Source of the DNA: Staphylococcus phage vB_SepM_BE08
Sequence record: MT596505.1
Length of the DNA: 64,000 nt
Reading direction: 5' to 3' (one strand)
Below, in pieces: positions 10,990 through 40,161 of this stretch; positions within the stretch are counted from its first letter, which is position 1; every line of letters begins with the position of its first letter. Both the position numbers and the translations under genes were made by a program. A model generated the notes under the pieces. It saw only the letters and a program-made list of their open reading frames with translations, was not told where the DNA came from and made no database searches.

Positions 10990-12099
10990 TTATTCAATAT
11001 ATTCAATATTATCTTTAGTTTCTAATATACCTTTTGCTGTATTATATACTAACTCAGGTTTATCTTCGACATCAAATGGAACAATGTTTTTACTTTTATC
11101 AAGTTCAAACTTTATTTTACTCATTAAGTCTTTAAAACCTACAAAATAACCTTTTCTTTCATCTAGATTATTCTTTTGATACGTGTATGTTCTATCAAAA
11201 GGTTTAACAAAGAATCTATAAGTATTTCTGCCTTTAACATAGTTAAATGATATTGCGTGACTTTCATAATATCTAATACTTGTTTCTTGTAAGATATAAC
11301 CATTAATAGGTATTTTTGTAATACTATCAAAAGCATCTTGGAAATCAGATAAATCATATAATAAGTCATTTGTATAAGATTTAATAGTTTCTAATACATT
11401 ATTTTCAGTAACAAATACGTATTTTAAATCACGAGTAGTAAAACTAGGAATACATATAGCTTCTTTAACATCTCTAAAATTCCCTTTAGAAGATAATATT
11501 ATTTCATTTATTTTTTGTTCTCTATCAGGAACTAATCCTATAATTAAAGGTATATTATTATATTTCAATTCTACATTAATACTCTGACTTTCTATAATAT
11601 ATGGTTTAACTATTTCTTTAATTTTTTGAAAACTTTTGATTTTATTCTCTACAGAAGTTATATTATAGTTTATTTCTTTAAAAATAGAACTTAATGCTTT
11701 ATGTGCTTTATAACCATCTAAAGTATAATCCAAATCATAAATACTCATTAAAAAATAAGATAAAACTTTTTTGTTTAAGCTATTATAAATTTCTAGATTT
11801 AAACTAGGATTTTTATACGAACAATCTAGTTTTAGTAAAAATTTAAAATTTTCATGTCCGTATTTACGTGTACGTTCAAGACTATACTTAGAGTAGTCAC
11901 TAACTTCTACTAAATCAAAGTCCAAATCTTCTTTGATTTTATTTACTAAACTTTTAGCAATATCATACTTGGAAAATAGGAACATATCATCTTTTTTCTT
12001 TATTGTTGGTTCTGGTTTAGACTCGAGAAATGCAAAAATTACACTAAAAATAACTAAAAAAACTACGAAAACTATCATCATACCTAATACAATTTTCAT
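10990..12099 (-). CDS. Hypothetical membrane-anchored protein (369 aa; N-terminal signal anchor)
   Basis: N-terminal IVLGMMIVFVVFLVIFSVIFAFL followed by a large soluble domain. Confidence 0.6.
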   Translation of the reverse strand: MKIVLGMMIVFVVFLVIFSVIFAFLESKPEPTIKKKDDMFLFSKYDIAKSLVNKIKEDLDFDLVEVSDYSKYSLERTRKYGHENFKFLLKLDCSYKNPSLNLEIYNSLNKKVLSYFLMSIYDLDYTLDGYKAHKALSSIFKEINYNITSVENKIKSFQKIKEIVKPYIIESQSINVELKYNNIPLIIGLVPDREQKINEIILSSKGNFRDVKEAICIPSFTTRDLKYVFVTENNVLETIKSYTNDLLYDLSDFQDAFDSITKIPINGYILQETSIRYYESHAISFNYVKGRNTYRFFVKPFDRTYTYQKNNLDERKGYFVGFKDLMSKIKFELDKSKNIVPFDVEDKPELVYNTAKGILETKDNIEYIE

Positions 12100-12152
12100 T
12101 ATTTATACACTCCTTTGTAATTATTTTCATTAGTATCTTCTCCTTTTATTTT

Positions 12153-12662
12153 TTATGAAAATACATCTTTCATTTTGTTATAAGCATCTAATAGTTTATT
12201 ATATTCTTGTTTAGAAATAGTTACTTTTTCTTGTATACTTGATTTTTTAAAATGTTCTTCATAATCTCGTTTACAAGGTCTAACAATATAATCAATTTGT
12301 TTCTTTGGAAAGAGGTGTTTTTCTACGGGTTTATTTCCTTTACCATCTCTATTTTGAGTAATAACAGCTACGTTATCAAAATTATGGTTGTAAACAATGA
12401 TACCATTGAATCCAAATATAGATATTTTTTCTGATACAAATATATCCCCTTCTCTATAATCGTCAGTTTTTAATAATTCTTTGGACTTAATGATTTTCCA
12501 AGAATTAGGTAATTTCTCGTATTTCATTCTACTAGCATTTAACTTAGTTGTATATTTATTTAAAGTTAATCGTTTTACATAATTAGATACTAGATTTGTG
12601 GATTGGTACCCATTAATATTGTTACTTTTTATAAATTTTCCTACGTAATCATTTAAATACAT
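12153..12662 (-). CDS. Hypothetical protein (169 aa)
   Basis: ORF in the array. Confidence 0.55.
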   Translation of the reverse strand: MYLNDYVGKFIKSNNINGYQSTNLVSNYVKRLTLNKYTTKLNASRMKYEKLPNSWKIIKSKELLKTDDYREGDIFVSEKISIFGFNGIIVYNHNFDNVAVITQNRDGKGNKPVEKHLFPKKQIDYIVRPCKRDYEEHFKKSSIQEKVTISKQEYNKLLDAYNKMKDVFS

Positions 12663-32278: not shown

Positions 32279-33523
32279 TTACATGTCTAGGTTTAAACCT
32301 TTTAGAACATCATCAACATTTTTTGGCTGTTCCATTTTAGGAGGTTCTTGATATTGCTGTTGATTTTGTTGTACGTTTTGTTGTTGAGGTGGTTGTTGCT
32401 GACTTCCAGTGTCGAAAGGTACTTGAGAGTCATTAATAGTATTCTCATCAAAATTCTCCCAAGGATTATTTCCTTGTGGCTGTTGTGGATGCTGTGGTGC
32501 TTGTTGTACCTGATTAAACTGTTGCTGTTGAGTTGGTTGTTGAGTATTCTGTTGCGATTGAGTATTAATAGTATTCCAATCATTCTGTGGTACTTGTTGT
32601 GTGTTTTGTTGTGGTTGATTACTTAAATTACCTGGTAACTGTTGTTCTACTTGTTGTTGTGTTGGCTGTGGTTGCTGTGTTTGTTGTACAGGTTGTTGTG
32701 GTTGGCTAGGTGCATCCCCTAATGTATTTGTATCTCTATTAAAAGTAAAGTTATCTGTTTCTAAAGGTGTTCCATTTACTTTATTAATTAAGAAGTTAAC
32801 AAGATTAGGGTTCACTTCTTCTGTAGGTTGTGCTAACTTATCTAAATCTGAAGATAGTTCTATCCAATTTGATGGTAGGTTACCAAATTGATATTGTGGA
32901 TTAGAGTATACTTGAACGTACCAATTTGTTTTATCATTTTCTTTTGCTTTCTTAAACATTACAGGATAAGCAATATTTTCAGAAATAAAGCTAAATTTAG
33001 CATCAGGTGAAGGGTTAAACATTTCATCTCCTAATTGACTAGCTAAAGCATTATATGCTGTAATAGGAATTTCTAAAGGTGAAATCTTAGGATTACCTGA
33101 GTTATCTACTACAGGTTGTAAAGTACCACCATTATTAATATACTCAATAACTTCAATGTAATATCTGTTAGATGGTCTGTTAGGGAATCGACTAAAAGGA
33201 ACCTTATTAGCTATCCAAGATTCAATAAATGGGTCAATAACTGACTCTCCTGATGTAGCTGGTAGTGTTAAACCTACGAATTTTTGCTCATTGTTTTTAT
33301 TGTTGAAGTTAATACCTGTGTTTCTAAATTTCTTATAAAATTCTAAAGAACCTTCTTTTTTAGGTGGTAAAATACGTACTAAAATTGAATCTTTAGTTGA
33401 ACCATCTTTTTGCTTACCTAATCGAATAACTGGATTTTTAGGTGTATAGTATTCCACCTCATTATTGTTATTATTTTGTGTTTCTTTTGCTTGTTGGTTA
33501 ATAAATTCTGTAAATGCTGACAT
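32279..33523 (-). CDS. Hypothetical protein (414 aa): globular N-terminal domain, long Gln/Pro-rich low-complexity linker, short conserved-looking C-terminal tip; candidate SSB-like replication/recombination mediator
   Basis: About 120 residues of QQ/PQ repeats, then DDVLKGLNLDM at the C-terminus. Sits between pol and recA. Confidence 0.6.
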   Translation of the reverse strand: MSAFTEFINQQAKETQNNNNNEVEYYTPKNPVIRLGKQKDGSTKDSILVRILPPKKEGSLEFYKKFRNTGINFNNKNNEQKFVGLTLPATSGESVIDPFIESWIANKVPFSRFPNRPSNRYYIEVIEYINNGGTLQPVVDNSGNPKISPLEIPITAYNALASQLGDEMFNPSPDAKFSFISENIAYPVMFKKAKENDKTNWYVQVYSNPQYQFGNLPSNWIELSSDLDKLAQPTEEVNPNLVNFLINKVNGTPLETDNFTFNRDTNTLGDAPSQPQQPVQQTQQPQPTQQQVEQQLPGNLSNQPQQNTQQVPQNDWNTINTQSQQNTQQPTQQQQFNQVQQAPQHPQQPQGNNPWENFDENTINDSQVPFDTGSQQQPPQQQNVQQNQQQYQEPPKMEQPKNVDDVLKGLNLDM

Positions 33524-33613: not shown

Positions 33614-34096
33614 CTAATGTGAAAATGGATTAGTCATTCCACCATTTTTATTTGTTTGTCTTAGTTCTGCTGATAACTGTACTAACATTGTAGAACGTTG
33701 TTCCCAAGCTTTTACAATATACTGTAACTGTTTTACTTTGTAATTCCATTGTTCTACAATTTGTTGTTGCTTTTGATAACTTTCATTAAGCAAAATATCT
33801 GATTCTATAACATCTTTAGTTGGTTTAATTTTTTGCTGTGTATATCCTTGTCTTACTTGTTTATTTACAGAAGCTCCTATTTGCTCTAACTTTCTACTTT
33901 CTGCTTCTGCATAAGCTCTAACTCTCTCAAGTAAAGAGCTCCAAAAAGCATACTTACTAGACTGTGTATACATCTCTTGTTGTATAGTATATTCACTTAG
34001 TTTTAGCTCATCATGAATATTGAATGTTTTAGCTTCACCATTCATATCAACAATAGTAAGTTCTGTAAAATCTAGACTATCTACATGAATTTCCAA
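33614..34096 (-). CDS. Hypothetical protein (160 aa)
   Basis: ORF in the array. Confidence 0.55.
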   Translation of the reverse strand: MEIHVDSLDFTELTIVDMNGEAKTFNIHDELKLSEYTIQQEMYTQSSKYAFWSSLLERVRAYAEAESRKLEQIGASVNKQVRQGYTQQKIKPTKDVIESDILLNESYQKQQQIVEQWNYKVKQLQYIVKAWEQRSTMLVQLSAELRQTNKNGGMTNPFSH

Positions 34097-34116
34097 ATCA
34101 ATTCCTCCTTTGACAT

Positions 34117-34147
34117 AACTATATCATAAATAGATATAGTTTGTCAA
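34117..34147 (-). promoter_or_regulatory. Sigma-A-like promoter (TTGACA-18-TATAGT) with an embedded 9-bp inverted repeat (operator candidate)
   Basis: aactatatc-N7-gatatagtt at 34117-34141. The left arm overlaps the -10 and the right arm abuts the -35 (plus 34142-34147). Confidence 0.45.
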
Positions 34148-34149
34148 TA

Positions 34150-35139
34150 TTAAATTTTAGTAAATGCTTCTTTATTTCCTTTAATATAATTTTCTTTACT
34201 TTCTTTTTCTTCTTCAGTAATCTTACCTGATTCAAAATAATCTTGTATTTTTTGGAGTGCTAACATGTATTTAACATAACCAATAGGAGAGTTAAATTCA
34301 TTCATATGATTTTCATCATATTCTACTAAATCTCCATAGCTTGTTCCTATTTCCATATCTGCTACAATAGGATACCTAATATTCTCTCCTTCATACTCAA
34401 TGTATAAGAAATCAAAAGGTAAGTTTTGCATACAATGTAATACAACTTTAGCCATAACTTTAACTTCATCTGGGTGTGTATCAACTACAATACTATCATG
34501 TACTGTGGCAATAAGTTTAGACTTCATATTTCTAGTTTGAATAAAATCATCAATATAAGTAATTGCCATACTTGTAAACCATGAACCTAAACCTTGTATT
34601 CTAGCATTAAATGATTGTCTTAAAGCTTGATTTCTTTTTTGTTTATCATTACTTGTAGCATTACCTAAAAATCGTCTAAACCCATGTAATGTTTCTACAT
34701 AACCATGTTTTTGTGCAAACTCATGCGTGTCTTCAATCGCTTGTCCTACAGCTGGCTTATTTTTATAGTAATTATCAAATAATTCTTCTGCCTCTTCTAC
34801 AGGCATATTATTTTTACTAGCAAAAGAAAATGGAACGTCACCATACAATAATGAGAAACTTACTGTTTTTGCTTTTGTACGTTCATCAGTAGTTATCTCT
34901 TCCTCTGGTTTATTATACACTAAGCTTGCTGTATTCTTGTGTAGGTCTCCCCCGTGTAAGAAAATATTAGTCATATCTTTATCTTTTGTCATCAAACCAG
35001 TAACTCTGAGCTCTAAAGCTGAATAATCGGCTTGTAAAATTACACCATTGTTAAATCTTGAAACAAAAGAACGTTTAATAGGGTGATGATAATCAAATTT
35101 ATTGACATTAGATGTGTGTGCTACAATATTTTGTAAATT
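34150..35139 (-). CDS. polA: DNA polymerase I (family A), exon 2 (C-terminal palm/fingers: motifs A, B, C)
   Basis: The reading frame continues upstream of the track ORF to about 35139: NLQNIVAHTSNV...ILQADYSALELRV (motif A), RTKAKTVSFSLLYG (motif B), ATVHDSIVVD (motif C). Confidence 0.85.
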   Translation of the reverse strand, partial: NLQNIVAHTSNVNKFDYHHPIKRSFVSRFNNGVILQADYSALELRVTGLMTKDKDMTNIFLHGGDLHKNTASLVYNKPEEEITTDERTKAKTVSFSLLYGDVPFSFASKNNMPVEEAEELFDNYYKNKPAVGQAIEDTHEFAQKHGYVETLHGFRRFLGNATSNDKQKRNQALRQSFNARIQGLGSWFTSMAITYIDDFIQTRNMKSKLIATVHDSIVVDTHPDEVKVMAKVVLHCMQNLPFDFLYIEYEGENIRYPIVADMEIGTSYGDLVEYDENHMNEFNSPIGYVKYMLALQKIQDYFESGKITEEEKESKENYIKGNKEAFTKI

Positions 35140-36236
35140 TTACTTGTGTACAATATAATTTATTTATTATATTGTATCTATTGTCATTTAAACAATAGCT
35201 ATATATCTCTATATAGGACAGACTATATCATATATCATTTCTGTGGTAGGTTTATTGTTTATTTACTGTTTCTAAATTTATATCCTTTATACTCTACAAA
35301 GTCATCTGTTTTTCTTAATTTATCTCTCAATGTCTTATGATTATTCATGTTGAGTAGTTTCATCACCTTATTCATACTATACTTAGTATACAATAGATTA
35401 CCGTCTAAGTCAAATACATCAATTTTCATATTTTTACTTCTTTTAGACTCTTTATTTACATACTCCCACTTATAACCTTTATGTGATTTATGTCTTCCAG
35501 AAATTACTTGACTTATTTTTGATGGGCTAAAATACCCACCAGTTTCTCTTTGTGCTTGAGTGGGTGAATCCCACACCTTAACAATATTACCTTCCATATC
35601 TTTTTGATATACTGCTTTATTAGATACCTTTTTAAGTTGTTCCCTAGCACTATACGTATTTTGTCTACCTTGTTTAGCAGAGTGTAAGGTATTGCCCCTA
35701 TAATCTACCCATTCTAGGTTGTTTACGTGGTTATTCAATCTATTATTATCGATGTGGTTAACAACATTTAGATTAGGATTATTGTTAGGTATAAAAAGCT
35801 TTGCTACTAATCTATGCACTAATATGTTACCCTCAGTAACTGTAACTTGTTTGTACCCTGAATTAATAATCCATGGTTTTAATTCATGCTTAGTAATTTT
35901 ATTTATTACTCTACCTGTATTACTTACTTTATATTTATCATCATAATCTTTCCAAACTTCTTTCATATACTCTTCCTTACTATTCCCTACCACAGAAATA
36001 ATATCCTTGCTTTCGTGGGTGTGTATTGGTTGTGCTACCTCAACACCTAGTCGTTGAGCCTTCCCCATACTTCCATACACTTTCAGGGGCTTGGTTGCGG
36101 ATTCTCTTTATTCTTAACCTTTTTACTGTACCAAACACATTACTGTTTGCCCTTATATATGTTTCCATTATAAGTTAGTAGTTAAGACCTAACAAGTTTC
36201 TCCCCGCAGTTAACAAAGTTTTACAACCCCAATTTA
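35140..36236 (-). mobile_element. Intron (group I-like, about 1.1 kb) interrupting polA within the conserved TGRLASSNP|NLQNI motif; carries an HNH homing endonuclease ORF
   Basis: Exon 1 ends ...STGRLASSNP followed by an in-frame stop. Exon 2 resumes NLQNI.. about 1.1 kb downstream. GC-rich structured segments flank the HNH ORF. Confidence 0.75.
35259..35966 (-). CDS. Intron-encoded HNH homing endonuclease (NUMOD4 + HNH_3 motifs)
   Basis: KEVWKDY..YKVSNTGRV (NUMOD4-like) and VHRLVAKLFIPN...VNHIDNNRLNNHVNNLEWV (HNH). Likely start MKEVW at 35966 with an AAGGAAG RBS. Confidence 0.8.
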   Translation of the reverse strand: MKEVWKDYDDKYKVSNTGRVINKITKHELKPWIINSGYKQVTVTEGNILVHRLVAKLFIPNNNPNLNVVNHIDNNRLNNHVNNLEWVDYRGNTLHSAKQGRQNTYSAREQLKKVSNKAVYQKDMEGNIVKVWDSPTQAQRETGGYFSPSKISQVISGRHKSHKGYKWEYVNKESKRSKNMKIDVFDLDGNLLYTKYSMNKVMKLLNMNNHKTLRDKLRKTDDFVEYKGYKFRNSK

Positions 36237-38465
36237 AGGGTTACTACTGGCTAATCTTCCTGTACTTGTAGTTGTTGATGAGAAACTACCATGTAGTGTT
36301 TGTGTGTTTTTATTAACCATTCTAGGAAGCTTATGAGTAAATGAGTTTCGTTTTGTTCGTATAGAGGCGTAGTATAATAAGTCTTCTATTAGTTCTTTGT
36401 TATCTTCTGTTACTTCTAAATCAGATAATATATATCCTAGAGCTTTAGTATCTGTTTTATAGTCTTCCCAACTAATATCTTGCTCTTTCTTTTTCTCAAA
36501 AGAGGTAGCTTTAACGTAGTTCTGGTCATAAGGTAATTCAAAACCTAATATTTTATACAATAGTTCACTTTTATGGTCTCCTGACCCTATATTAAATTTC
36601 CACCCATCATCTTTATACTTATTTCTGTACTTCTCTATTTCTGGGTCTCTTTCTTTTTTAGGTTTACTAAACTCTTCTAAACCTAGTTCATATAAGTTAT
36701 ATTTTTCTTCTTCAAATTCTTTTACCGCCCAATGTTCTCTTATTTTATTTTCAATTTTAGTTAATTCTAATTCATAGGCTTTGTCATTCTTTTCCATGTA
36801 ATCTAAATCAGCATATAGACCATTACTCTCTATTCTTGCTAGGGTTCTATCTAACCTTGGATAATCTTGTTGCCATAACTTTATTGCTTTAGGTCGTTGT
36901 TGGTCTTTTAATTTTTCTAGTATATTAGAATAAATTCTACGACATACATCAACGTCACCACTAGCATAAGGGTGCATTAGTTCTAAAGGAATCCAATCAT
37001 AATTAAACTTACCACCATCAACTTCATTATATACATCTGTATGTTTTTTAAACCTATTAATTAATTCTAAAGCTGTTTTAAGTGTATATTCTTTACCTTC
37101 ATCACTTAAAGACATATACTCATCCGAAAGCTTAGCTACCTCTTCAAACTCTGAATCACCCATTAACATTGTTTTTGTTAATCGTTCTGGGTGTAAACCT
37201 AATTGAATATATTGCTTATCAGTACTATTCATTTCTGTTTTTTGCTCATATTTATCAAGCTCTACTTCTTTATCCACACTAATGTTTTCAGATAACCAAT
37301 TTTTATATTCTGTTGCTTTAATATTATGTTCTTTTTTTGCAATACTCTTATTATCTTTAATAATAGTAGACATTTTTTCTGACAAGAATTTAAGTAATTT
37401 TCTACTAAACCATTTTTTAAATTCTTCTAACGGTGTGTCATACCCACCCATATCTGTAACCTCATATGCTAAGTCAGACAGGCGTTTAGAATCTGTGGTT
37501 TCTTGTGTTACAGCTAAATACCAGCCTACAAGTGTGTCTTGATTATTTTCAAATGTGTTAAATCCTAGTGTACTCATTAGGAATTTTATATCATATTTAA
37601 TATTATGACCTACTTTTATATCCTCTTTATCAGCTAACCATTCTCTTAAGTAACTTAGTATCTCATCAATATCTTTTTGTCCGTTTTTCCAATTAAAATC
37701 AGATTTATAAATAGGTATTGTGACACCTTGTCCGTTTTTCCAACTTAAAGATACTACTAAAACTTTACTTCCTGCTCTATCTGGTTTTAGTGAATTAGTC
37801 TCTGTATCCCAAGCTGTTATATCTATACCATCATTATTATCTTTTTTTACTTCTTTAGTAAAAATCTCTCTTACTCTTTCAATATCTGTTACAAGTTCAT
37901 ATGACACTTTTTTAGGTTTAAAGGCTTCTTCTCCATTTTTTACAAATTTACCTAATAAATTAAGGTCTGTAACTACATGACGTTCAGCATTTTTATTAAC
38001 ATTAGTGTATTCAATACTATAAGTAGGTAATACCCAAACACCTTTACTTGTATTTTCAGTACTTAATGTTATTTTGTGAGGTACACCTCTTACTGAACCT
38101 AATTTTGTAACGTTTAGTAAAAATTTAATACCTAGTTTACCTAAAGGAACAATAATATCATAATTATTATCAATAATTCGTTTAGTTAATTCTGAGTAAT
38201 AAGGTTTAACTTCTGTTTGCTTTACATCTTGGTATTTAACAATCTTACCGTAATTATTTGTTACAGGTGTTGGTATAGCCTTATACACAAAATCAATATC
38301 ATAATCTTTTCTAGAATTATCTCTTACTAAACCTGAACATCTCTCTAATAACATTTTTAAAGTTTTACCATTTTGAGTATTAAAAAGATTTAATCTTGTT
38401 TTATTATCATCTGTAACTTTAAAATGTTCTTCTCTTATGTGGTCGTATAAAATTAAAGCTTTCAT
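36234..38465 (-). CDS. polA: DNA polymerase I (family A), exon 1 (3'-5' exonuclease and N-terminal polymerase region)
   Basis: Exo I motif ITAWDTETNSL. Ends ...HGSFSSTTTSTGRLASSNP. Likely start MKALILYD at 38465 with an AAGGAGAAG RBS. Confidence 0.85.
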   Translation of the reverse strand: MKALILYDHIREEHFKVTDDNKTRLNLFNTQNGKTLKMLLERCSGLVRDNSRKDYDIDFVYKAIPTPVTNNYGKIVKYQDVKQTEVKPYYSELTKRIIDNNYDIIVPLGKLGIKFLLNVTKLGSVRGVPHKITLSTENTSKGVWVLPTYSIEYTNVNKNAERHVVTDLNLLGKFVKNGEEAFKPKKVSYELVTDIERVREIFTKEVKKDNNDGIDITAWDTETNSLKPDRAGSKVLVVSLSWKNGQGVTIPIYKSDFNWKNGQKDIDEILSYLREWLADKEDIKVGHNIKYDIKFLMSTLGFNTFENNQDTLVGWYLAVTQETTDSKRLSDLAYEVTDMGGYDTPLEEFKKWFSRKLLKFLSEKMSTIIKDNKSIAKKEHNIKATEYKNWLSENISVDKEVELDKYEQKTEMNSTDKQYIQLGLHPERLTKTMLMGDSEFEEVAKLSDEYMSLSDEGKEYTLKTALELINRFKKHTDVYNEVDGGKFNYDWIPLELMHPYASGDVDVCRRIYSNILEKLKDQQRPKAIKLWQQDYPRLDRTLARIESNGLYADLDYMEKNDKAYELELTKIENKIREHWAVKEFEEEKYNLYELGLEEFSKPKKERDPEIEKYRNKYKDDGWKFNIGSGDHKSELLYKILGFELPYDQNYVKATSFEKKKEQDISWEDYKTDTKALGYILSDLEVTEDNKELIEDLLYYASIRTKRNSFTHKLPRMVNKNTQTLHGSFSSTTTSTGRLASSNP

Positions 38466-38853: not shown

Positions 38854-39579
38854 CTACAGTTTAACATTCTTTTGTTTTTTTAATTTAGTTATCTCATTTG
38901 TAACATCTTGGTGGTCTTCTTCACTAGTAAGGATATAGATATACATTTTCCATACAGATAGAGATACTCTAATTCTTTCAGCAAAATCAATTTTATATTC
39001 AGGTTTTAGTACGTAACCTTCACCATCAAAATCATAAAATTTTTTTTGTTTTTCTTCAATTGTTCTTAGCTTAGGGAATGTTAAATGAACCTCATCAACA
39101 TTAGTTTTAATTGGATGTAAATTTCTAATAATTTCATAAGGATTTACATAAGGAAGTACTATTGAAATATCAATTATTACTTTAGTTCCCATAAAGGATA
39201 ATGCTATATTATCAATTTCTTTATCTGAAAAACGCTCACGCATTTTATAAACAACTGCTGAATTTTGGTTTGTAGATAAGTCTTTAAATACATAATAAGG
39301 TATAATAGAATCTGTATAATAGTAAACACCGCCTCCATGTTTACATACTTTCTCAATAAGCCTATCGTTATTATACTTCTCATTAAATAACATATAAGTA
39401 TTATCATCTTTGAGTATATATCTACTAGACTTAGTAGCTACCTTATCTAGATTTTTTTCTATATCCTCTTCATTTGCATGTGTTATTTTTATTGATTTAC
39501 TTATTTCTTTTTTATCTTTAGTATGAATATTGAAATATCTATCACTATTATATATAGTTAGTGTTTTATTTTTTGCCAT
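38854..39579 (-). CDS. Hypothetical protein (241 aa)
   Basis: ORF in the array. Promoter embedded in an inverted repeat upstream. Confidence 0.55.
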   Translation of the reverse strand: MAKNKTLTIYNSDRYFNIHTKDKKEISKSIKITHANEEDIEKNLDKVATKSSRYILKDDNTYMLFNEKYNNDRLIEKVCKHGGGVYYYTDSIIPYYVFKDLSTNQNSAVVYKMRERFSDKEIDNIALSFMGTKVIIDISIVLPYVNPYEIIRNLHPIKTNVDEVHLTFPKLRTIEEKQKKFYDFDGEGYVLKPEYKIDFAERIRVSLSVWKMYIYILTSEEDHQDVTNEITKLKKQKNVKL

Positions 39580-39968: not shown

Positions 39969-40161
39969 ATTTATTCTTCATCCGTTGTCAAAAACTTATA
40001 AAACTTTATAAATCTTATTCCTTTTTCAATGTACCCTCTTTTGAGTATTTCATATACATAGATTACTTCTTATTACTCTACTTGAGTTTGTATGATACTC
40101 CAAAGGCTTAAATTCCCGTACAACGAACGGTACATATATTTAGTATCTTGTTTTTGATATT

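Follow-up and report, generated by a model that had tools for sequence, protein, structure and literature searches.

The stretch of DNA analysed here, called the window, is 64,000 nucleotides (nt) from Staphylococcus phage vB_SepM_BE08 (MT596505.1), and it contains a gene for a family A DNA polymerase, polA, that is interrupted by what is very probably a mobile group I intron with A as its last nucleotide. Positions are window positions unless a contig or another phage is named, and polA and the intron are on the minus strand. The 1.6 kb queried is 99-100% identical to Sepunavirus myophages of S. epidermidis (vB_SepM_BE04, phiIPLA-C1C, SEP1, Twillingate and others), and this identity places the window among the Sepunavirus genomes of the SEP1 / phiIPLA-C1C-like type. 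Exon 1 closes with GGA AGA TTA GCC AGT AGT AAC CCT, the CCT being 36239-36237, and runs directly into a TAA stop codon at 36236-36234, and exon 2 opens with AAT TTA CAA AAT ATT GTA from 35139 and reaches its own stop at 34152-34150. The initial annotation had proposed that exon 1 ends in STGRLASSNP plus a stop and that the frame resumes as NLQNIVAHTS 1.1 kb further on, and direct reading of the minus strand agrees with both statements, the interruption being 36236..35140 (1097 nt). It had also taken the listed open reading frame (ORF) at 34150..34995 for only a part of exon 2, which is correct, as this ORF begins at the first in-frame start codon within exon 2, a TTG at 34995. The start of exon 1 agrees with the phiIPLA-C1C annotation.

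Joining 38465..36237 to 35139..34150 gives the exact polA coding sequence in window coordinates and a protein of about 124 kDa and 1072 amino acids (aa), which aligned with residues 303-584 of the Klenow fragment (E = 3.7e-52) without a gap at the junction (TGRLASSNPNLQNI versus TGRLSSTDPNLQNI). After joining, the palm/fingers domain of the Family A (Pol I-type) polymerases is continuous and includes the NLQNI and DYSxxELR motifs. Alleles free of the intron read through the site without interruption: AAT AAT CCA AAT TTA CAA AAC in JDF86, AAC CCT AAT CTT CAA in phiSA_BS2 and AAC CCT AAC ATG CAA in Alsa_1, so that all three have a continuous NP/N(L/M)QN; the flanking exon of JDF86 is 97% identical to that of the intron-bearing Golestan101-M. 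The insertion inside SSNP/NLQNI that had been suggested is borne out by these alleles and by the Klenow alignment, and on this evidence the host gene is a family A DNA polymerase with the insertion between the Pro and Asn codons of its invariant SSxP/NLQNI motif. The SEP1 and Twillingate records already give polA in two pieces, "interrupted by intron", and many other Sepunavirus records split it into two separate polymerase genes.

The closest characterized relative of the inserted element is found in the Kayvirus polA gene, annotated as a three-piece join with I-KsaII and I-KsaIII, and nucleotide identity across the whole element is about 75%. By this homology the element is the Sepunavirus ortholog of the phage K pol-I3/I-KsaIII intron. 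The two share the insertion point (AACCCT/.../AATTTACAA), the first 40 or so intron bases differ at few positions only, the P, Q, R and S elements match, the 5' ribozyme halves are about 92% identical, and both have a 235-aa HNH ORF in the P8 loop. The Kayvirus intron differs in ending ...AUUAUAG, with the canonical G, and in its 3' peripheral domain P9-P9.2, which is only about 70% identical. O'Flaherty and colleagues reportedly proved splicing in phage K by reverse transcription PCR in 2004.

The assignment to group I made in the initial annotation is supported by this annotated ortholog, by matches to the Rfam family RF00028 and by covariation. In a search confined to its surroundings the 5' half matched RF00028 with 17.8 bits (E = 0.019), aligning P3-P4-P5-P6 and the R element, and a natural ORF-less copy of the intron, 348 nt long, in the contig L028 (IMGVR_UViG_2840904412_000001, positions 11934-12282) aligned over the full length from P1 to P9 with 42.5 bits (E = 1.2e-9), under the 50-bit gathering score. 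We aligned ten intron family members with the ORF loop swapped for GAAA, and RNAalifold recovered P1, P3, P4, P5-P5c, P6a, P8, P9 and P9.1 from this alignment; P6 and P7 were added by hand. Over the 10 sequences, the 94 pairs of the full structure are 99.5% paired, and compensatory double changes were seen in 18 of these pairs, compared with 0-2 in controls in which the partners were slid by 1-3 columns. None of 500 column shuffles reached the observed values. Across phage genera the 5' ribozyme half is 90-95% identical compared with 55-77% for the flanking polA exons, a contrast that fits either strong constraint or an intron that has spread horizontally in recent times. The structured segments had been called GC-rich, and this holds in relative terms only for the 5' ribozyme half (38.9% versus 27.5% for the window) and not for the 3' part (22.7%).

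The intron contains a gene predicted to encode a homing endonuclease, with an ATG at 35966, a stop codon at 35261-35259 and a Shine-Dalgarno sequence AAGGAAG from 35978, so the earlier description of a free-standing HNH ORF with its own ribosome-binding site was accurate. The NUMOD4 match scored 31.8 bits (cut-off 23.4) and the HNH_3 match 22.8 bits, just below its cut-off of 24.8, and I-HmuI (PDB 1U3E) aligned over residues 6-169 with E = 4.2e-14, including VHRLVA...NHxDxNxxNNxxxNLxW; the NUMOD4 score and the I-HmuI match agree with the NUMOD4-HNH type named in the initial annotation. The frame is open further upstream (35967-36080, minus strand), through P6-P8 to a GTG at 36080, and public records annotate the gene with differing lengths of 660, 810 and 822 nt. 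The ATG is the preferred start on account of the NUMOD4 alignment and of the Shine-Dalgarno sequence. The I-HmuI-like enzyme would probably nick its polA target and would thereby drive homing into intron-free polA alleles.

The base that precedes the resumed frame is A35140 (...CACAAGTAA/AATTTA), as the initial annotation had reported, and the in-frame triplet 35142-35140 is TAA. Two pairings bear on the position of this junction. The first is P1, with 8 pairs and a U36237.G36230 wobble at the 5' splice site, which is 100% paired in the 10 sequences and shows one-sided changes only; the placing of U36237 in the wobble is the same in all relatives. The second is P10, in which the first six intron bases, forming the P1 loop, pair perfectly over 6 bp with the beginning of exon 2. 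In RSM-J51Sa the P10 guide is CAUAUU and exon 2 begins with AAUAUG, a double compensatory change, and this covariation therefore validates both P10 and the position of the 3' splice site. On these pairings the junction is fixed by P1 with its U.G pair together with the 6-bp P10.

Copies of this junction were then compared across phages. A 25-nt string covering it, TTGTACACAAGTAAAATTTACAAAA, is identical in 13 fetched loci, some of which are the same contig again; the carriers are the Sepunavirus phages phiIPLA-C1C, BE05, Twillingate and SEP1, the S. pseudintermedius phage DH2, and five different contigs of IMG/VR or metagenome origin. A 221-nt query across the junction had 100% identity to 11 more phage records. 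In DH2, exons and endonuclease loop are only 74-78% identical to those of the window, yet the tail is the same, and P9 shows compensatory changes. Terminal A was found in every Sepunavirus copy checked and also in DH2, Alsa_2 and Golestan101-M. The Alsa_2 intron ends ...UUAUAAAA and the Golestan101-M intron ends ...UAUAGAAA, where a G at -4 would add a Lys without counterpart in the intron-free relative. Terminal G was found with the same ribozyme core in Kayvirus (UUAUAG), 184DA (ACACAAUAG), EW3 (GAAUUG) and PSU6 (CUAGUG), and also in J51Sa (ACACAAUG) and in the ORF-less metagenomic copy L028 (UACAAUAG). In L028 the endonuclease loop and the P8 3' strand are deleted and a mini-hairpin UUUCU-GCGGU-AGGAA is left. 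DH2 and L028 are 99% and 95% identical in their exons and 73.5% in their intron 3' domains, so intron variants must be exchanged between phages. DH2 has both the endonuclease gene and the terminal A and L028 has neither, and the A-tail variant thus travels together with an intact endonuclease gene.

The site that would bind guanosine is the same in all of these introns. The P7 pair G36052-C35221, in GACUA/UAGUC, is invariant in 10/10 family members whatever the terminal nucleotide (omega), and the R element (CAACGACUAGG) and the S element (GAUAUAGUCU) are identical in 10/10 sequences. G36052-C35221 is presumed to be the guanosine-binding pair; we liken it to G264-C311 of Tetrahymena, and we take the R and S sequences to be the same as in T4 td and Tetrahymena.

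We consider it likely that the element is a mobile IA2-like group I intron that is spliced with A at its 3' end and so restores SSNPNLQNI. In the proposed mechanism, an external guanosine at the P7 G-C pair would attack after U36237, in the U.G pair of P1, and the freed exon 1 would remain held on the guide. The 6-bp P10 (UAAAUU/AAUUUA) would align exon 2, and ligation between A35140 and A35139 would give ...SSNPNLQNI.... The ligated junction would be expected to read ...AGTAACCCT joined to AATTTACAAAAT, recognizable as the read string AGTAGTAACCCT/AATTTACAAAAT. The second step would put A into an unchanged guanosine site, so that ligation would rely mainly on P10 and the structure of the tail. 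Ligation would be expected to fall short of that in the G-terminated relatives in speed or efficiency, and it may be helped by a protein.

Several points weigh against this reading. A compensating G-C to A-U change at the guanosine site was sought across the A-terminated lineages, in P7 and the adjacent junctions, and was not found. Two substitutions near P7 common to the SEP and DH2 introns (U to C in J6/7 and A to G after P7) were considered as compensation and rejected, as they are absent from Alsa_2 and Golestan101-M; a G after P7 is presumably also present in the G-terminated T4 td. In Tetrahymena, a terminal G replaced by A is said essentially to block ligation when the guanosine site is wild-type (Price and Cech in 1988, Michel and colleagues in 1989, Been and Perrotta in 1991), and therefore standard self-splicing would not be expected to work well here. 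The Tetrahymena G414A mutant matches the phage intron in the nucleotide changed and in its functional position, but it is said to have been active only with the matching change in the guanosine site, G264A:C311U (Michel in 1989, Been and Perrotta in 1991), whereas the G-C pair of the phage intron is invariant. The window intron also stays below the Rfam gathering threshold: no group I intron was detected over 34000-37500 at E <= 1, and at the gathering threshold the whole window gave no group I intron and only a RAGATH-18 motif. We attribute the low RF00028 score to the 0.7-kb ORF in P8, which splits the core, and to large insertions in P5 and P7.1. Finally, splicing of Sepunavirus polA is inferred from viability and selection. 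The SEP1 transcriptome paper discusses terminase introns only (PMC11265418). A search of a large protein collection for spliced Sepunavirus products gave fragments across the junction of Kayvirus type only, the Sepunavirus-like proteins being limited to exon 2, and this result is neutral on Sepunavirus splicing.

There is one natural case with which the terminal A can be compared. The hexacoral mitochondrial intron ND5-717 is an A-terminated group I intron in an essential gene, its exons are perfectly ligated in vivo with reduced efficiency, and its terminal A has been proposed to prevent hydrolysis at the 3' site and circularisation (PMC6545197, PMC8146996). ND5-717 is still classed as group I, so terminal G is near-universal and not strictly defining. 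It differs from the phage intron in being organellar, strictly vertically inherited and non-mobile, with whole oxidative phosphorylation genes in P8; it belongs to another subgroup and is unrelated in sequence, whereas the phage intron is mobile and has close relatives that are G-terminated. No report of a terminal A in bacterial or phage introns, including those of Staphylococcus phages, was found in the literature searched, which did not extend to subscription-journal reviews, and ND5-717 is the only natural precedent found in our survey and literature search.

The alternative that survives best, although we regard it as doubtful, is that the intron carries out the first step and that ligation at the A-terminated 3' site depends on a trans-acting factor, either a protein of host or phage origin or an RNA repair/ligase route, in which case the intron would not truly self-splice in vitro. 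Such a factor would account for a guanosine-binding pair that is unchanged though omega is A, for the second-step defect said to arise when other group I introns are engineered from G to A, and for the inefficiency of ND5-717 in vivo. However, no maturase is indicated in the window, HNH endonucleases like this one are not known to have maturase activity, and G-terminated relatives have a ribozyme core with 90-95% identity to this one.

That the exons are joined at all is suggested by exon 2 itself. It has no ATG, GTG or TTG before codon 49, both NLQNI and motif A with the catalytic Asp, DYSALELR, lie before that codon, and direct reading found no Shine-Dalgarno sequence or other ribosome-binding site ahead of 35139. 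In these first 48 codons the window and DH2 have 22 synonymous versus 3 nonsynonymous codon differences; therefore they are translated in the polA frame under purifying selection, and a stretch under such selection that has no start of its own implies that the exons must be joined. An intron dead for splicing, with the polymerase made as two polypeptides, that of exon 1 being about 87 kDa, or with exon 2 started from a non-canonical codon, is improbable on this evidence. It would suit the stop codon that ends exon 1 and the several public records with two separate "DNA polymerase" coding sequences, but a separately initiated C-terminal piece would be without NLQNI and the catalytic Asp, the selection on the start-less codons is strong, and the ribozyme core, P1 and P10 are kept with compensatory changes. 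Accurate exon joining at an A-terminated intron is the most likely reading, judging from viability and selection.

The initial annotation had left two options for the A: either the splice site lies a few nucleotides away, or the junction is genuinely unusual. We tried every 5' site between -45 and +39 with every 3' site between -150 and +89, and no G-terminated intron among them keeps the motif; those with an open frame use a G at +16 or beyond and delete at least NLQNI. SSNPNLQNI was reproduced only by the variants (0,0) and (-1,-1), and both of these are A-terminated. The shifted site therefore did not hold up, and the comparative data agree with an unusual junction. For the same reasons it is very improbable that a cryptic G-terminated 3' site is used to make a polymerase with a changed junction. 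There is a G 4 nt upstream, and there are more at +16, +19 and beyond, but splicing after G35143, the nearest one upstream, gives CCU UAA AAU with an in-frame stop. P10 is exact on AAUUUA, the closest intron-free relative of Golestan101-M lacks the extra residue, and within 40 nt Alsa_2 offers no G. An error of sequencing or assembly has nothing in its favour beyond the rarity of terminal A and can practically be discounted, as the junction is repeated in records from Portugal, Switzerland and the USA (where stated), in separate metagenome assemblies and in the divergent DH2; by these comparisons the terminal A is real, conserved and recurrent across related phage lineages.

The observation in the initial annotation is confirmed and its interpretation as a whole supported. 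The analysis establishes anatomy, junction, conservation and selection, and splicing and its kinetics are what we infer from them.

The insertion site is shared with other introns. The gene 31 intron of SPO1/SP82 (I-HmuI/I-HmuII) is at the same codon boundary (SSNEP/NAQQFP in SPO1), has its gene for a homologous endonuclease (1U3E) in the P8 loop, and matches in the R and S elements. It differs in ending in G (...UGUAG/AAC), its P1, P10 and peripheral helices are unlike those of the window intron, and nucleotide-level homology is undetectable outside the core. We take its length in SPO1 to be 882 nt, which fits the fetched coordinates. In scans of IMG/VR and metagenomes, many unrelated phage polA genes had an intron ending just before AAYTTRCARAAY, and the unrelated introns at the site that were verified as polA were all G-terminated, the sole exceptions being Sepunavirus-type contigs. 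The SSNP/N site of polA is, on these scans, a widely used homing site. It is intron-free in 87 records, those listed being S. aureus-type phages, and an intron-free Sepunavirus allele was not found among 13 records at >= 99% identity. PMC11878797 calls the distribution of introns across Twortvirinae well documented. Intron, insertion site and endonuclease are ordinary for Herelleviridae and the terminal A is not; the novelty lies in the terminal A, the intron and endonuclease being already annotated publicly.

Other elements were seen in or near these genes. Golestan101-M (L009, 2052-3794) has a second interruption in polA, downstream of its HNH intron, and this element codes for an "HTH homing endonuclease", which gives three polymerase pieces in the record; JDF86 carries an HTH endonuclease gene at the equivalent place. 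In Staphylococcus phage PG-2021_27 (L047, Twort host), at about 280-370, a different group I intron with the S element GAGATATAGTCTGAAC... and the end ...ACATACTTG finishes about 11 codons upstream of the SSNP/N site, and therefore the polA region hosts at least two distinct insertion points. One IMG/VR pattern match that looked like an A-terminated case (L029, IMGVR_UViG_3300014204_001477) was rejected as a chance match in a different gene. At 1360-1940 it has two tandem full-length group I introns (RF00028, 115.6 and 105.4 bits) about 40-80 nt apart, near the 5' end of a gene that starts just after a 422-aa ORF and is unrelated to polA.

The features of the locus are collected in Table 1. 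The RAGATH-18 RNA motif lies at 40018-40106 on the minus strand and scored 61 bits against a gathering score of 44.9. It is about 0.4 kb past the ORF 38854..39579, itself two genes upstream of polA; the same Rfam family was matched in an unrelated IMG/VR contig (L031, 3292-3352). Two genes downstream of polA, an ORF of 414 aa (32279-33523, minus strand) has a long Gln/Pro-rich low-complexity C-terminal half (QQPVQQTQQPQPTQQQ...).

Table 1. Features of the interrupted polA gene and its predicted intron, in window coordinates.
Feature	Position	Strand	Remarks
polA exon 1	36237..38465	-	743 codons, MKALILYD...TGRLASSNP; ORF list and translation
polA exon 2	34150..35139	-	329 codons + stop, NLQNIVAHTS...DYSALELR...
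Group I intron, IA2-like	35140..36236	-	1097 nt; ortholog of phage K pol-I3; omega = A35140
P1 hairpin	36223..36244	-	exon strand 36244-36237 (GUAACCCU) / internal guide 36230-36223 (GGGGUUGU)
P10 guide UAAAUU	36231..36236	-	first six intron bases, P1 loop
P10 exon 2 partner AAUUUA	35134..35139	-	Asn-Leu codons; perfect 6-bp complement of guide
P3	36218-36213 / 36010-36005	-	encloses P4-P6 region, overall 36005..36218; Rfam alignment, RNAalifold, pair counts
P4	36208-36203 / 36101-36096	-	Rfam alignment, RNAalifold, pair counts
P5-P5c	within 36005..36218	-	Rfam alignment, RNAalifold
P6/P6a	36094-36086 / 36066-36059	-	P6a: compensatory changes in 3/4 pairs
P7 5' strand GACUA	36048..36052	-	invariant in 10/10 family members
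P7.1/7.2-type hairpin	36046-36023	-	inside P3-enclosed region
P8 stem, 13 bp	35998-35986 / 35250-35238	-	span 35238..35998; closes endonuclease-gene loop
Homing endonuclease gene	35259..35966	-	235 aa, I-HmuI-like NUMOD4 + HNH; in P8 loop
P7 3' strand UAGUC	35221..35225	-	part of S element
P9, GAGA loop	35216-35199	-	compensatory changes in 4/7 pairs
P9.1	35197-35179	-	compensatory changes in 4/6 pairs
P9.2	35177-35149	-	read directly; P9-P9.2 = peripheral 3' domain 35149..35216
3' tail CACAAGUAA	35140..35148	-	ends in omega = A35140

The terminal guanosine of group I introns is treated as an invariant catalytic element, as it occupies the guanosine-binding site for exon ligation. Here viable phages have A at omega in their replicative polymerase gene, in a ribozyme core that matches the G-terminated sister introns in P1, P3, P4, P7, P8, R and S. 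On balance we lean to the view that terminal G has changed to A at least twice and probably three times (in Sepunavirus and DH2, in Golestan101-M and in Alsa_2), with the guanosine pocket unchanged and the variants maintained in an essential gene. The polA intron is the only bacterial or phage example in our survey and literature search, and natural G/A pairs are available: SEP1, DH2, Golestan101-M and Alsa_2 with A and K, 184DA, J51Sa and L028 with G form a natural experiment. Their comparison bears on how strictly the second step needs a terminal G, on how far P10 can substitute for it, and on whether slowed ligation serves to regulate an essential gene. If splicing is accurate, P10 and the tail alone can carry 3' splice-site choice and ligation in IA2-like ribozymes. 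The terminal A might then be selected, perhaps because it slows polymerase production or, as has been suggested for ND5-717, because it keeps the 3' site from hydrolysis and the intron from circularising.

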